Source of the DNA: Candidatus Woesearchaeota archaeon
Lineage (GTDB): Archaea; Nanobdellota; Nanobdellia; SCGC-AAA011-G17; PNOQ01
Length of the DNA: 64,000 bases
Reading direction: 5' to 3'
Assembly (NCBI GenBank): GCA_043812195.1
Contig: JBDRML010000016.1
Coordinates: 1-64,000 of the forward strand
In this document: positions 10,888-63,984 of the stretch, one piece after another
Numbering within the stretch: the stretch's first letter is position 1
Layout of the letters: each line of letters begins with the position of its first letter
Notes under the pieces: generated by a model
What the model saw: only the letters and a program-made list of their open reading frames with translations
Database searches by the model: none
What the model was told of the DNA's origin: nothing
Program-made: the position numbers and the translations under genes

Positions 10888-10979
10888 CGCCGGAGACAGG
10901 ATTCGAACCTGCACGCCCTAAGGCACTAGTTCTCTCAATAAGTTCGAGACTAGTATGTCTACCGTTTCATCACTCCGGC
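10888..10979 (-). tRNA. tRNA-Ser(CGA) with 11-nt intron at canonical 37/38 (10932-10942)
   Basis: GCCGGAG/CTCCGGC acceptor, CTAGT/ACTAG anticodon stem, long variable arm, GGTTCGAATCC T-arm, G73; CTCG pairs with intron TGAG (relaxed BHB). Confidence 0.92.
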
Positions 10980-45887: not shown

Positions 45888-46593
45888 CATAATAGGTCCA
45901 TCTACTGGATGGTTATACGCAATTGGAACAAATACATTAGAAGAACAAGAAAAAATAATAAAAGAAGCAAATGCAAACGCATTTGAAATTTCATTCGAGC
46001 CAGAAGTACCAAGAATTAGATCTTTATTAAATGGAAGCTTTAATGGTTTCAAATATAGATCAATGCATCTACCTGAAATAGATCCAGCAAAACCTCTAGA
46101 AGCACAATTAGGAGCAATGAAATCAGTAATAAGCAAACATAAAATAGAAACAGGAGTAATTCATCCTTGTGATGTCTCTTCAAGAGATTACTGGAGAAGA
46201 ATGGTTACTTACACAATTCCTGTAGCAGCAGAAAATATGGACAAAAATAAACCAAGCGGATTCAAATTAGAAGAACTAAGAGAATTAAACGAAATTTATG
46301 GAGTAAATTTTGTATTAGATGTTCAACACGCATATGAACATGATCCAACTATGAATTATGCTAAAGAATTATTAAATATGATGGAACCTAATTTAAAACA
46401 CCTACATGTTAGTGGAGAAACAGAAGACAACTGTCATTCATTAGTATATAAAGCAAGAAACGCAGATACAATAACAGATTTCATAGGAACAGTATTATCA
46501 AGAAAGGAAGTTCCGATAATACTTGAAGGACAGTATTCAAATGCAGAAGAATTAAAAACAGAAATAGATTTCCTAAATGGTGAATTAAAATGA
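45880..46593 (+). CDS. Xylose-isomerase-like TIM-barrel protein
   Basis: MHLP, VIHP, ENMD, LDVQHA, HLHVS, ILE metal-ligand pattern. Confidence 0.7.
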   Translation: MINIIGPSTGWLYAIGTNTLEEQEKIIKEANANAFEISFEPEVPRIRSLLNGSFNGFKYRSMHLPEIDPAKPLEAQLGAMKSVISKHKIETGVIHPCDVSSRDYWRRMVTYTIPVAAENMDKNKPSGFKLEELRELNEIYGVNFVLDVQHAYEHDPTMNYAKELLNMMEPNLKHLHVSGETEDNCHSLVYKARNADTITDFIGTVLSRKEVPIILEGQYSNAEELKTEIDFLNGELK

Positions 46594-47900
46594 TAGAACC
46601 TAAAAAATTAACATTAACAAAATCTTATGATTATTGGAAAAGAGCCGTAGAAGTAATTCCAAATGGTTGCATGACCATAAGCAATGGACCAATAAGTTAC
46701 ATAACAAATGTTTCACCAATATACATTCAAAAAGGAAAGGGATGTAATGTATGGGATGTAGATGGAAATAAATTTTTAGATTTAGCTCCAGGAGGTTATT
46801 TAAAAATATTAGGCCATAACTACAAACCATTAACAAAAGCCATAATAAAACAAGTAAAAGATGATTCAATTTTCCAAATGCCACATCCGCTAGAAGTAGA
46901 AACAGCAGAAACAATAGTAAAGACAATTCCTAGTGCAGAAATGGTTAAATTTGCAAAAAACGGTGCAGATGTTTTAACTATGGGTGTAAGAGCAGCTAGA
47001 GCATACACAAACAGAGACATGATAGCTTCAGAAGGTTACCATGGAATACACGATTGGTATATCGGAACCACAGAAAGAAACAAAGGAGTTCCAGAAGCAG
47101 TCAAAAGATTAACAGCCACATTTAATTACAATGATATAGATTCACTTAAAAAAATATTCGAAAAATATCCAGACCAGATAGCATGCGTAACTTTAGAACC
47201 AGTTCAATTATCAGAGCCAAAAAATAACTTTTTACATCAAGTTAAAAAAATCACACATGAAAATGGCGCAGTATTAATGTTTGACGAGATAATAACTGGA
47301 TTCAGATTTTCACTCGCTGGAGCACAAGGTTATTTTGATATAAAACCAGATTTGTCAGCATTTGGCAAAGCAATGTCAAACGGATTCTCCTGTTCAGCTT
47401 TAGTTGGAAAATCAGATATAATGATGGAATTTGAAAAAGGTGCATTTTTCTCAACAACATACGGTGGAGAAACAACTGGACTAATAGCAGCAAAGAAAAC
47501 AATAGAAATAATGAAAGAAAAAAATGTTCACGACCATCTTTGGAAAATGGGATCCATACTAAAAAATGGAATAAATAAAATCATAAAACAAAATAATCTA
47601 CAAGACCATTATTATATTCATGGATATCCTGTTTGGACAGTAATAAAAGCAAAAGGTGATGATAAAATAGGAACAGAAAACGAAAAAACTGGCTTATTGC
47701 AACAAGAAGCAATGCAAAGAGGAATGTTAGCAGGATTATTCCATGGATTATGCTACGCACATAAAGAAAAAGATATTCAAAAAGGATTAGAGATTTACGA
47801 AGATTCTTTCAAAAAAGTTAAAAAGTACATTAATGAAGGGGATATCAAAAAACATCTAAAGGGAGAATACGGAGGAAAAGTATTCAGAAAAGTAGGTTAA
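46590..47900 (+). CDS. Class III aminotransferase (GSA-aminomutase-like, glycan-associated)
   Basis: WDVDGN, GYHGIHDW, FDEIITGFR, FGKAMSNG, STTYGGE. Confidence 0.88.
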   Translation: MIEPKKLTLTKSYDYWKRAVEVIPNGCMTISNGPISYITNVSPIYIQKGKGCNVWDVDGNKFLDLAPGGYLKILGHNYKPLTKAIIKQVKDDSIFQMPHPLEVETAETIVKTIPSAEMVKFAKNGADVLTMGVRAARAYTNRDMIASEGYHGIHDWYIGTTERNKGVPEAVKRLTATFNYNDIDSLKKIFEKYPDQIACVTLEPVQLSEPKNNFLHQVKKITHENGAVLMFDEIITGFRFSLAGAQGYFDIKPDLSAFGKAMSNGFSCSALVGKSDIMMEFEKGAFFSTTYGGETTGLIAAKKTIEIMKEKNVHDHLWKMGSILKNGINKIIKQNNLQDHYYIHGYPVWTVIKAKGDDKIGTENEKTGLLQQEAMQRGMLAGLFHGLCYAHKEKDIQKGLEIYEDSFKKVKKYINEGDIKKHLKGEYGGKVFRKVG

Positions 47901-62014: not shown

Positions 62015-62164
62015 ATGGAAACTGTAACAATACCAAAGGAAGAGTATGAATGCTTAAAAGAGAAAGCAGAATTAGATGAAGATTTATTAATTTCATTAGT
62101 CAGAGGTTTAGAAGATATAAAATCCGGCAGAATAAAACCATGGAAAAGCAAAATTAAAGATTAA
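62015..62164 (+). CDS. 49-aa putative RelB-like antitoxin
   Basis: METVTIPKEEYECLKEKAELDEDLLISLVRGLEDIKSGRIKPW; TTTAAAAA TATA-like box upstream; not in the ORF track. Confidence 0.7.
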   Translation: METVTIPKEEYECLKEKAELDEDLLISLVRGLEDIKSGRIKPWKSKIKD

Positions 62165-62465
62165 GTTTTCTTTTGATTTCTTCTTTATAGGTGGGTATTA
62201 AACTTTTTATTTTATCGATTGCTTTTTGTTGATCCCTTTTAGTGCTTATAGCAATTAAAAAAACTACAACATGTTCTTCATAAATTAGATAGTATATTCT
62301 ATGGTTTTTAATTTTCTTCTCTCTGAAGAATTTATAACCTAAAGATCTACCAACGTAGGGATTCATTTCTAATTGTTCAATTTCGTTATCGATCATTATT
62401 TGAAGAGATTTATCTAATCTATCAAAATACTTATCATATTCATCTGTAGTGAATATATTGTACAT
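62154..62465 (-). CDS. RelE/ParE-family toxin
   Basis: LEMNPYVGRSL..FFREKKI..RIYYLI..VVFLIAIS.KRDQQ. Confidence 0.8.
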   Translation of the reverse strand: MYNIFTTDEYDKYFDRLDKSLQIMIDNEIEQLEMNPYVGRSLGYKFFREKKIKNHRIYYLIYEEHVVVFLIAISTKRDQQKAIDKIKSLIPTYKEEIKRKLNL

Positions 62466-62537
62466 ATGAAATCAGTAATGGCTTATTGTTTTTAAATTAT
62501 TTGATTTCAGTGGTGGGATTTCGACCTAAACATAGGA

Positions 62538-62652
62538 CGCCGCGACTGGGATTCGAACCCAGATATCCTTTCGGAAACAGGTTTTCAAGACTTACGCTTC
62601 AAAGATATTAAATCACTTGAATCTGCGCGATACCAGATTACGCGATCGCGGC
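62538..62652 (-). tRNA. tRNA-Ser(TGA) with 31-nt intron at non-canonical position 29/30 (62592-62622)
   Basis: GCCGCGA/TCGCGGC acceptor, G73, long variable arm; removing the intron gives a perfect CAGGT-CTTGAAA-ACCTG arm; BHB-type junction (GCGC/GCGT helix, TTCAA/TTGAA intron helix). Confidence 0.88.
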
Positions 62653-63229
62653 ATAAACTTTGTAAAACCATGTTGCTTTCAGCCATATTTAAATTTAACT
62701 GATATGAAAAATATTTGTTTTTTTGTATAACAGCTTTAACAGGTTTATTAAATCCCAATAAACTTTCAGTTATCTTGCCTATATCCAATAATAAACCCCT
62801 ACTAGCCATATGAAATAATACTCTCCCTCTTTTATTTATCACTCTATCTGTTAATAATAATCCAAGGAAAAAATATTTTTTAACTTTCCTACATGAATTC
62901 AATATTAAATTCGGAACCCTTACAATAGATGCTTTCTTTCCTGAAGGAATATTCAATTCATTTACTAAATAATCAAACATTGATCTTGAGTATTTAAAAA
63001 ATTCATAGATAGTCTTTCTATTTGACCTAGTTCTATTTATTATCTTTCCTTTCTCACCAAATAAATCAAAGTATAAATTATAAAATAAGTCAACTAAAGA
63101 TTAGAAGTATTATAGAACATAATTGAATAAGTAAGATAACCAGATCCATTCATTACGGTTAGAAATACTACCATCTCCGATTACCATCCCCAAAAAAAGA
63201 GCTAATTTATTAATATTTATATCTTCCAC
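62585..63229 (-). pseudogene. Frameshifted double-motif LAGLIDADG homing-endonuclease-like gene overlapping the tRNA 5' half
   Basis: From GTG 63229: LALFLGMVIGDGSI (motif 1); after about 3 frameshifts ..IPSGKKA..VRVPNLI..KYFFLGLLLTDRV (degenerate motif 2). Confidence 0.72.
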
Positions 63230-63300
63230 GCCATCCTATAGATTTACAGATTTATAAATTCTGAACCAACATATGATAAAATTTCGGAAAATCTTTTTAT

Positions 63301-63984
63301 TTAAAATATTCCAACTAAATGGTAAACTAACTTAGTAGAAACAGCAATTGCATCATCATAATCAATAAATTCTAAGATAATACAGTCATTATCTGTTAAA
63401 TAAATCTGATTCTCATCCCCTTTCTCAAATAATATTATGGTTCTCCCATTACCAGAATCATCACATGTTCTTACAGGAATATCTATATCTTGTGTAAACT
63501 CATTCTCTTCAGTCAACGCACTAATAGTATTTATCTTAAAAACAGCAGGCTCAACACCAGTACTTAATATTCTCTGAGCAGTCAATATAGCAATTGCCAT
63601 TTTTCCATCTGATTCAATATCAAGATCAACATCTCTAGTAATATAAATATTCTTAGTTTTAGACTTATTAAATATTAAATCATTTATAGTATCATCTAAA
63701 GGGATACCTTCTAACTCTTCAGGACCATATTCAAAGGGAACCTTATACTCCTTTCTAAATTGAGGTACATTATTAACTGTTCTATAATCAATCCAAAAAG
63801 ATACTATATGTATCGGTTTTCCAGTATGTTTATCTACACTTATATTATATTCAATCCCATCAGCCCCAAGATAGCTATACTCATAGGAAATTCTAGATAA
63901 AGTAGGCACAAAAATAACTATTAAAAGTAAAACAACTAAAACAATAATACCTATTGTTATATTTCTTCCCTGTTTTTTATCCAT
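63301..63984 (-). CDS. Membrane-anchored hypothetical protein
   Basis: N-terminal TM; C-terminal RTCDD..DCIIL..KLVYHLVGIF. Confidence 0.7.
   Translation of the reverse strand: MDKKQGRNITIGIIVLVVLLLIVIFVPTLSRISYEYSYLGADGIEYNISVDKHTGKPIHIVSFWIDYRTVNNVPQFRKEYKVPFEYGPEELEGIPLDDTINDLIFNKSKTKNIYITRDVDLDIESDGKMAIAILTAQRILSTGVEPAVFKINTISALTEENEFTQDIDIPVRTCDDSGNGRTIILFEKGDENQIYLTDNDCIILEFIDYDDAIAVSTKLVYHLVGIF

Follow-up and report, generated by a model that had tools for sequence, protein, structure and literature searches.

Bulge-helix-bulge (BHB) introns of ribosomal RNA (rRNA) host homing endonucleases of the I-DmoI type, and in bacteriophage T4 the GIY-YIG enzyme SegB is encoded in the transfer RNA (tRNA) gene cluster, with no known overlap of its promoter or open reading frame (ORF) with a tRNA. 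According to their Protein Data Bank titles, I-DmoI and the related I-Tsp061I, PI-PfuI and TliVMA are all intron- or intein-encoded. Group I introns with LAGLIDADG ORFs are reported from archaeal rRNA genes, including those of Woesearchaeota (Nawrocki et al. 2018, PMC6125680), and segB is reported to be a homing endonuclease gene that is free-standing and found with tRNA genes (PMC13096335). Collaborative or trans homing, by a free-standing endonuclease together with an ORF-less or defunct intron, is reported from phages, for example from T4 with mobE and the I-TevIII intron (PMC2790892) and from a cyanophage with F-CphI (PMC6083498); PMC3984707 is a further paper on such homing. In full-text literature searches we found no account of free-standing LAGLIDADG genes that directly adjoin tRNA genes of archaea, and no paper describing a tRNA promoter within the last codons of a selfish gene. 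Here we describe a broken LAGLIDADG gene directly 5' of an intron-containing tRNA-Ser(UGA) gene in a Candidatus Woesearchaeota archaeon. It is located near the end of the window, by which we mean the whole stretch analysed, the first 64,000 nucleotides (nt) of contig JBDRML010000016.1. With a probability of roughly 60%, we read the locus as a decaying free-standing single-chain LAGLIDADG gene docked 5' of tRNA-Ser(UGA) in DPANN archaea, with the tRNA intron as a linked passenger.

The gene shares with the I-DmoI group the fold, the two motifs in one chain of about 190 amino acids and the family LAGLIDADG_3, at a sequence identity of 18–28%. It differs from that group in being free-standing, outside the tRNA gene that it abuts, and in having a predicted promoter of its own. 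With SegB it has in common that a free-standing endonuclease gene stands by tRNA genes, but the enzyme family and the phage host are different. The phage systems of collaborative homing are similar in that a free-standing endonuclease gene lies beside an intron-bearing gene and co-conversion of the neighbouring DNA is expected. In those systems group I introns interrupt phage protein genes and the enzymes are of the HNH or Endo VII type, whereas the present locus combines a BHB intron, a cellular tRNA and a LAGLIDADG protein. Furthermore, collaborative homing is defined by a target that the intron splits, and an intron at position 29/30 is absent in most metagenome carriers of the present family. 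The features of the locus are the following:

62585..63229, minus strand: decayed two-motif (single-chain) LAGLIDADG homing endonuclease gene, from three-frame translation and ortholog alignment
63251..63258, minus strand: TATA-like box TTTATAAA, 21 nt before the GTG start, likely the promoter of the endonuclease gene
63098..63152, minus strand: out-of-frame stretch between two indels, from frame translation against the ortholog alignment
62686..62693, minus strand: TTTAAATA, probably the TATA box of the tRNA gene, 33 nt upstream of position 1 and within the codons for ...QLNLN...
62538..62652, minus strand: tRNA-Ser(UGA), 115 nt with its intron, long variable arm, no encoded CCA, from ARAGORN with introns allowed and manual reading
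62592..62622, minus strand: 31-nt BHB intron at positions 29/30, from the alignment of relatives and covariation
62585..62587, minus strand: anticodon TGA, which is also the stop codon of the endonuclease frame, from frame translation

Frame A of the endonuclease gene runs from a GTG start at 63229 to the stop codon at 62587-62585 on the minus strand and contains both motifs. Motif 1 reads LALFLGMVIGDGSIS (core GMVIGDGS) and has its Asp-Gly pair. Motif 2 reads FFLGLLLTDR (core LGLLLTDR) and keeps the Asp but has Arg (TDG to TDR) where Gly is found without exception in the 20 intact relatives, all orthologs, on which such features were scored. Comparison with orthologs revealed two lesions: one nucleotide has been gained near 63152-63151 (+1) and one lost near 63099-63098 (-1). 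Between these indels, 17 codons give NGSGYLTYSIMFYNTSN when translated in a different frame; compared by eye, 12 of them agree with ortholog P0007. The ancestral reading would be ...SISNR in frame A, then NGSGYLTYSIMFYNTSN off-frame, and frame A again from LVDLFYNLYF onwards. Frame A also contains two TAA codons, at 63112-63110 and 63103-63101; these are secondary, because the ortholog comparison places them in the out-of-frame stretch only. A single frame with two nonsense mutations was ruled out, since the stretch between the stops matches the orthologs in another frame, and a genetic code in which TAA is sense is superfluous, since the TAA codons occur only in the out-of-frame stretch. Assembly error was likewise rejected as the source of the frameshifts. 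Independently assembled Logan contigs, drawn from three sequencing runs that belong to three different studies, span both indel sites without indels at a low depth of 2–8, and the lesions are real.

With two frameshifts and a Gly to Arg exchange in motif 2, the enzyme is predicted to be dead in the window, and the tRNA next to it looks intact. A TATA-like box is present within 60 nt before the start in six close-clade relatives, as TTTATAAA in loci L006, L008, L009 and L022 and as the variants TTTATAAT in L007 and TTTTTAAATA in L020, and TTTATAAA is likely the promoter of the endonuclease gene. A first-pass annotation, made from the sequence of the window, had described a decayed gene with two LAGLIDADG motifs directly upstream of tRNA-Ser(TGA), with a TATA-type box of its own near 63251-63258 and a last frame stopping at the TGA anticodon. 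All of this was recovered here: both motifs can be read, intact homologs exist, TTTATAAA lies 21 nt 5' of the GTG, and the frame stops at 62587-62585. Its caution about assembly frameshifts is answered by the contigs from the three studies, and its figure of about three frameshifts should be corrected to two, the +1/-1 pair.

Against Pfam LAGLIDADG_3 the window's own copy, its stops replaced by X, reaches 15.4 bits (E 0.023), and its read-through weakly matches a V-ATPase intein chain (E 0.003). The cut-off of the family is 22.5 bits. The same family is matched by all 20 intact relatives, with a best E of 1.5e-13; the LAGLIDADG assignment, for which the first-pass annotation had looked to a hidden Markov model search of the corrected protein, holds for 20/20 intact orthologs, whereas the own copy stays below the cut-off. 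Fourteen intact homologs of 169–216 amino acids are 41–58% identical to the own copy, the best aligning over 99% of its length, and intact relatives at the same site show 38–65% identity (tblastn or BLASTP). All of the 20 relatives have the Asp-Gly pair of motif 2, and at least 90% of them have that of motif 1. The fold was modelled with AlphaFold on an ortholog, P0002, and not on the broken copy (predicted local distance difference test (pLDDT) 88.1, predicted template modelling score 0.85). The model is a pseudo-dimeric alpha-beta-beta-alpha-beta-beta-alpha arrangement, and its matches in Foldseek include the TliVMA intein endonuclease (7qsu, E 5e-14), PI-PfuI and I-DmoI (2vs7, target template modelling score 0.79). 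WhiA is also among the fold matches of P0002, and two family members weakly match the LAGLIDADG domain of WhiA. For intact orthologs, the ratio of non-synonymous to synonymous substitution rates (dN/dS) amounts to 0.168 in the pair with the least saturation and to 0.08–0.53 over all unsaturated pairs. Taken together, the dN/dS values, the fold and the kept Asp-Gly pairs argue that the intact genes are under purifying selection and encode what is predicted to be an I-DmoI-like single-chain LAGLIDADG protein.

The host genome (G000) has 938 kb in 45 contigs and 29% G+C, and its sequence-based relatives are metagenome-assembled genomes of Woesearchaeota/Nanoarchaeia. The organism is represented in groundwater metagenomes. 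Position relative to the tRNA was examined in 10 genome loci fetched from species-representative genomes, four of them being genomes G012, G018, G020 and G023, and in 51 metagenome loci. Of the latter 49 could be classified; L132 is cut off by the end of its contig, and L147 is no ortholog. The gene abuts the 5' end of tRNA-Ser(UGA) in 10/10 of the genome loci and 49/49 of the classifiable metagenome loci, and the further orthologs from the genome search are also located at the 5' end of tRNA-Ser(UGA).

The docking is close enough for the two genes to overlap. In the window the endonuclease frame stays open across exon 1 of the tRNA and its intron, and ends at the anticodon TGA (62587-62585). 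The homolog C-termini CRDRIIWY..., FAAIA and PxWHNLVLR are the tRNA 5' end translated in three different frames. Residues 193-211 of the P0002 model have a pLDDT below 50, and the last modelled helix, residues 179-191, closes the structured part where the tRNA starts. The stop exactly on the anticodon is a by-product of the frame, because three different frames are used where relatives terminate within the tRNA, and the P0002 model shows a disordered tail; the folded part of the protein should end near 62655, the last ~22 codons being an incidental tail. The last ~20 endonuclease codons also hold the TATA box and leader of the tRNA. In 10 carrier loci, including the own copy, CAGTTAA(A/G/C)TTTAAA is kept 33–37 nt 5' of the tRNA, and the codons for ...SYQL(N/T)L(N/K)... 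carry TTTAAA(T/A)A 33–37 nt before tRNA position 1. The box TTTAAATA is likely the promoter of the tRNA gene.

Presence and absence of the gene were compared in a family set consisting of 24 relatives and the window's genome. Seven genomes are carriers (G000, G005, G008, G012, G018, G020 and G023). In 11 relatives the upstream gene, which ends in ...YHxLGxM* and is the ortholog of the window's 227-amino-acid gene at 63301-63984, is followed by about 45–50 nt and then an intron-less tRNA-Ser(TGA). The contrast is clearest between two genomes of the same genus, G007 without and G023 with the gene. The 1458 nt that end with the stop codon of the upstream gene are 88.5% identical between them, and the 1552 nt from the 3' part of the tRNA onward are 82% identical, whereas the spacer between the upstream gene and the tRNA is 43 nt in G007 and 627 nt in G023. 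The tRNA of G023 has two introns, and its exons are the same as those of G007. In the more distant carriers L010-L015 the common block consists of the gene and the tRNA only, and the upstream neighbours differ. An ortholog at E ≤ 1e-30 was found in 8/240 genomes of the order, with at most 13 candidates scored per genome.

Different stages of decay were also observed. Frameshifted copies are present in metagenome loci L122, L140 and L146, and 5'-truncated copies in L141 and L144. In G130 a scar remains after the same upstream gene, in which the start MDSISNDLALFLG is fused to the end YQLVLNKSESQQILNSMP (the first ~13 and the last ~15 codons), and in G102 the last codons alone remain. Because gene-free relatives keep 43 nt at the site and other genomes keep scars, the gene behaves as a mobile homing-endonuclease gene that has been repeatedly gained and lost.

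Neither default ARAGORN nor Rfam calls the tRNA-Ser(UGA) at 62652-62538. When introns are allowed, ARAGORN reports Ser(tga) with an intron given as (34,31), and the exons, 62652-62623 and 62591-62538 on the minus strand, align to the intron-less tRNA-Ser(TGA) of relatives. In an alignment of 10 intron-bearing and three intron-less genes the insertion follows position 29. A BHB structure was proposed by hand on this alignment: exon positions 24–27 pair with the intron sequence GYGU in a 4-bp central helix, flanked by bulges of 3 nt each (positions 28 and 29 with the first intron nucleotide, and AA with position 30), and intron nucleotides 2–6 pair with the five nucleotides preceding GYGU in a 5-bp hairpin. 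An outer helix on the exon side is not part of the identified structure. The pairing is found in 87/87 alignment cells, four pairs show compensatory changes, and position 26 covaries with its intron partner (A:U in six sequences, G:C in four). None of 500 shuffles reached the score, and slid partners paired in 23–53% of cells. A minimum-free-energy fold of the precursor tRNA gave an alternative and uninformative structure, and the BHB was taken from covariation instead.

By this covariation the 29/30 intron is judged to be a genuine BHB intron. It is presumably removed by the host splicing endonuclease, and the genome has one gene with a tRNA_int_endo domain, a 182-amino-acid open frame. The intron has the two 3-nt bulges round a 4-bp helix, supported by covariation, that are seen in non-canonical archaeal BHB tRNA introns, and in itself it does not differ from them. 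A group I intron was considered and rejected, since Rfam at the gathering threshold matched one tRNA only within the window. A T-arm-like candidate for a tRNA 3' stump at 62510-62527 was dropped after showing no significant similarity elsewhere in the genome, and inspection by eye of 63230-63300 and of G023 revealed no remnant of a tRNA 5' end upstream of the gene. When aligned to the window, a low-depth contig from a different groundwater sample passes from 62589 to 62623 through two other letters; its tRNA-Ser is a related one that lacks the 31-nt intron and stands in a different flank.

The 29/30 intron is present in 12 of the 14 genome-derived carriers: the own copy, L006, L007, L009, L010-L015, L020 and G084, where it was inferred from a pattern match 45 nt after the gene and not read. 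It is missing in G012 and G008, and the anticodon stem of G008 (CTGGC/GCCAG) is exactly the spliced form. Among the metagenome carriers 19/49 have the intron (15/42 with identical tRNA regions collapsed). Most of the other 30 have a canonical 37/38 intron only, and no anticodon-region intron is present in L107, L126, L133 and L138. In the family set the intron occurs in 5/7 carriers and 3/14 non-carriers (G003, G009 and G019; Fisher p 0.056), and four of the 25 genomes could not be classified for this comparison. The intron is also found without the gene body. Of 24 matches to GYGTAAGCCTTGA that lacked an ortholog 20 were fetched, and 12 of these are genuine tRNA-Ser(TGA) genes that contain the intron and eight are chance matches. 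The order thus includes at least 12 genomes with the intron but no endonuclease gene body. The raw count of 70/240 genomes with the pattern GYGTAAGYYTTGA was not used as an intron count, many matches being due to chance (8/20 fetched).

Gene and intron are linked in the window's sub-clade, which fits co-conversion of a marker 30–110 nt from the gene and retention of the intron once the gene is gone. The gene family as a whole does not depend on the 29/30 intron, and an intron that shields its carrier is no family rule, because 30/49 metagenome carriers and 2/14 genome carriers are without it. The first-pass annotation had proposed a homing unit in which the intron protects the carrier. The homing-endonuclease lineage, decayed and docked at the tRNA, and the insertion that is present in some genomes and absent in others agree with this proposal; the shield is not supported as a general rule. 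Similarly, the adjacency of such genes to tRNA 5' ends that it expected is borne out by the survey (10/10 and 49/49), whereas the association with the intron is borderline within the family.

The reading we favour, a decaying endonuclease gene docked at the tRNA with the intron as passenger, would work as follows. A unit of ~0.63 kb takes the place of the ~43-nt spacer between the conserved upstream gene and the tRNA. An intact enzyme would cut endonuclease-free alleles in or beside the tRNA-Ser gene, and repair from the carrier would copy the gene together with neighbouring sequence. When carriers are compared with empty alleles, leader and promoter are replaced in every carrier; the simplest guess is that the target spans the leader/promoter region or the tRNA 5' end and that the insertion itself destroys the site. 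The intron would travel with the gene by co-conversion and stay after the gene has decayed.

Several points weigh against this reading. Homing is deduced from the family to which the gene belongs and from its distribution, not from observed cleavage, activity or transfer. The gene and its flanks have diverged to a similar degree within the closest clade, at ~70% nucleotide identity, which also fits long vertical descent with repeated loss. The link between gene and intron in the family is borderline at p 0.056 and comes from related genomes. The intron calls in the metagenome loci were made mostly by regular expression and eye, an automated classification of these loci having been discarded as unreliable with many loci mis-anchored, and the order-wide ortholog search (E ≤ 1e-30, 240 genomes, at most 13 candidates scored in each) may have missed copies.

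An alternative that we regard as unlikely is that the endonuclease cuts intron-less tRNA-Ser(UGA) near 29/30 and that the intron splits the site and shields the carrier, the two parts spreading together by collaborative homing. LAGLIDADG enzymes favour near-palindromic sites, and the DNA of an anticodon stem-loop is a near-palindrome. The frequency of the intron in genome-derived carriers (12/14), its distribution in the family (5/7 against 3/14), the difference between G023 with gene and two introns and G007 with neither but the same exons and genus, and a LAGLIDADG gene within the 30/31 intron of a tRNA-Lys of the same genome would all suit such a pair. Against this alternative stand the 30/49 metagenome carriers without a 29/30 intron, 4/30 of which are without any anticodon-region intron, and the intron-less carriers G012 and G008, the latter with the stem of the spliced product. 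Furthermore, the intron is far commoner in the order than the gene (12 of 20 checked matches compared with the gene in 8/240 genomes).

Two other explanations do without a mobile nuclease. LAGLIDADG maturases and the WhiA regulator exist, and it is conceivable, though we consider it very improbable, that the present protein is domesticated and serves the tRNA as a maturase-like helper or a promoter regulator, with no selfish nuclease involved. Its constant position, the purifying selection, the tRNA promoter inside the gene and the similarities to WhiA in sequence and fold are in line with such a service. A service to the tRNA is hard to reconcile with a gene that is found in 8/240 genomes, is lacking even from some genomes with the same intron, and is dead here and in several other genomes with the tRNA intact. 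Maturases often lose the Asp-Gly residues of the motifs, whereas these are kept here, invariantly in motif 2 and in at least 90% in motif 1. That the gene order is static and has been passed on vertically, without mobility past or present, is the explanation we find hardest to believe. It would account for the similar divergence of flank and gene in the closest clade, but it conflicts with the clean presence/absence differences within genera, the deletion scars, and the distant carriers in which other genes lie upstream and only gene and tRNA form the common block. It also conflicts with the host genome itself, where 7/10 free-standing LAGLIDADG frames of 213–367 amino acids precede a tRNA and another is located within the intron of a tRNA gene.

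This last observation comes from a Pfam LAGLIDADG_3 search of the whole genome, which gave 29 matches; the window's own copy was not among them. Seventeen places were inspected, namely 16 of the matches, frames of more than 1000 amino acids being left out as likely inteins, and the window's copy. Of the ten frames of 213–367 amino acids, seven lie directly before a tRNA, one is inside a tRNA intron and two have no downstream tRNA; none of seven larger frames (390–624 amino acids) is followed by a tRNA. The tRNAs after the seven are Ser-UGA (the window), Ser-GGA with a homologous 29/30 intron, Ser-GCU, Trp-CCA, Cys-GCA, Glu-UUC and a tRNA on contig C25 that lies ~100 nt downstream. All seven have introns at non-canonical positions wherever these could be read. 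The six other tRNA-docked LAGLIDADG genes, of 251–367 amino acids and all open, are at:

C29:75874-76282
C29:109500-109904
C29:99130-99580
C26:4473-4907
C45:65546-65948
C25:371-866

Several of these six ORFs (before Ser-GGA, Ser-GCU, Trp-CCA, Cys-GCA, Glu-UUC and the C25 tRNA) end inside the tRNA. The frame inside an intron belongs to tRNA-Lys(UUU) of G000 (C29:46198-46923), which is apparently split at 30/31 by a 652-nt intron (46229-46880) containing a complete 211-amino-acid LAGLIDADG_3 ORF (46244-46879). The ends of this intron pair in a helix of 10 bp, next to which comes a BHB-like GGUG/AA|G junction. An archaeal tRNA gene would here contain an endonuclease encoded in its intron. Just upstream of it, tRNA-Asp(GUC) (C29:46077-46180) seems to hold a T-loop intron of ~29 nt.

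A broader speculation, offered tentatively and with more doubt than confidence, is that tRNA-docked LAGLIDADG genes plant and spread BHB introns at odd positions in the tRNA genes of DPANN archaea. The endonuclease would first ride inside an intron, as in the tRNA-Lys(UUU) gene of this genome with its 652-nt intron at 30/31. Elsewhere, a gene just outside the tRNA would drag ORF-less introns along by co-conversion, or be shielded by them. The endonuclease gene would then decay and be deleted, and the short intron would remain.

A few further observations were made at and around these loci. Just 3' of the tRNA-Ser a 103-amino-acid ORF at 62154-62465 on the minus strand of the window resembles a ParE toxin (Pfam ParE_toxin, E 2e-5). 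It overlaps by 11 nt a convergent 49-amino-acid ORF at 62015-62164 on the plus strand, a possible partner. Relatives have other genes there, and the ParE-like ORF may be an insertion at the 3' side of the tRNA. In two metagenome carrier loci (L107:1261-1500, and L144/L145 after 919) a copy of 16–19 nt of the tRNA-Ser 3' end, comprising T-stem and acceptor, lies ~60–100 nt past the complete tRNA, and looks like an old 3' end left by an insertion. Another tRNA in the window, at 10888-10979 on the minus strand, is called Arg(tcg) by default ARAGORN and Ser(cga) with an 11-nt intron if introns are allowed, and its identity is ambiguous.

For annotation, the locus means that default tRNA finders miss an essential-looking tRNA-Ser(UGA), and that gene callers will report a 131-amino-acid protein overlapping the tRNA. 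The family represents many natural LAGLIDADG scaffolds with probable targets in conserved tRNA genes. The window's copy belongs to a series that leads from intact to frameshifted and internally deleted genes, then to a scar and finally to complete loss, all tied to one tRNA gene. The origin of introns at non-canonical positions in archaeal tRNA genes is an old open question; in one clade the decay series is tied to one intron, and the question is thereby open to a cleavage assay. If tRNA-docked endonuclease genes do act as vehicles for such introns, this would explain the abundance of non-canonical tRNA introns in genomes of the DPANN type.

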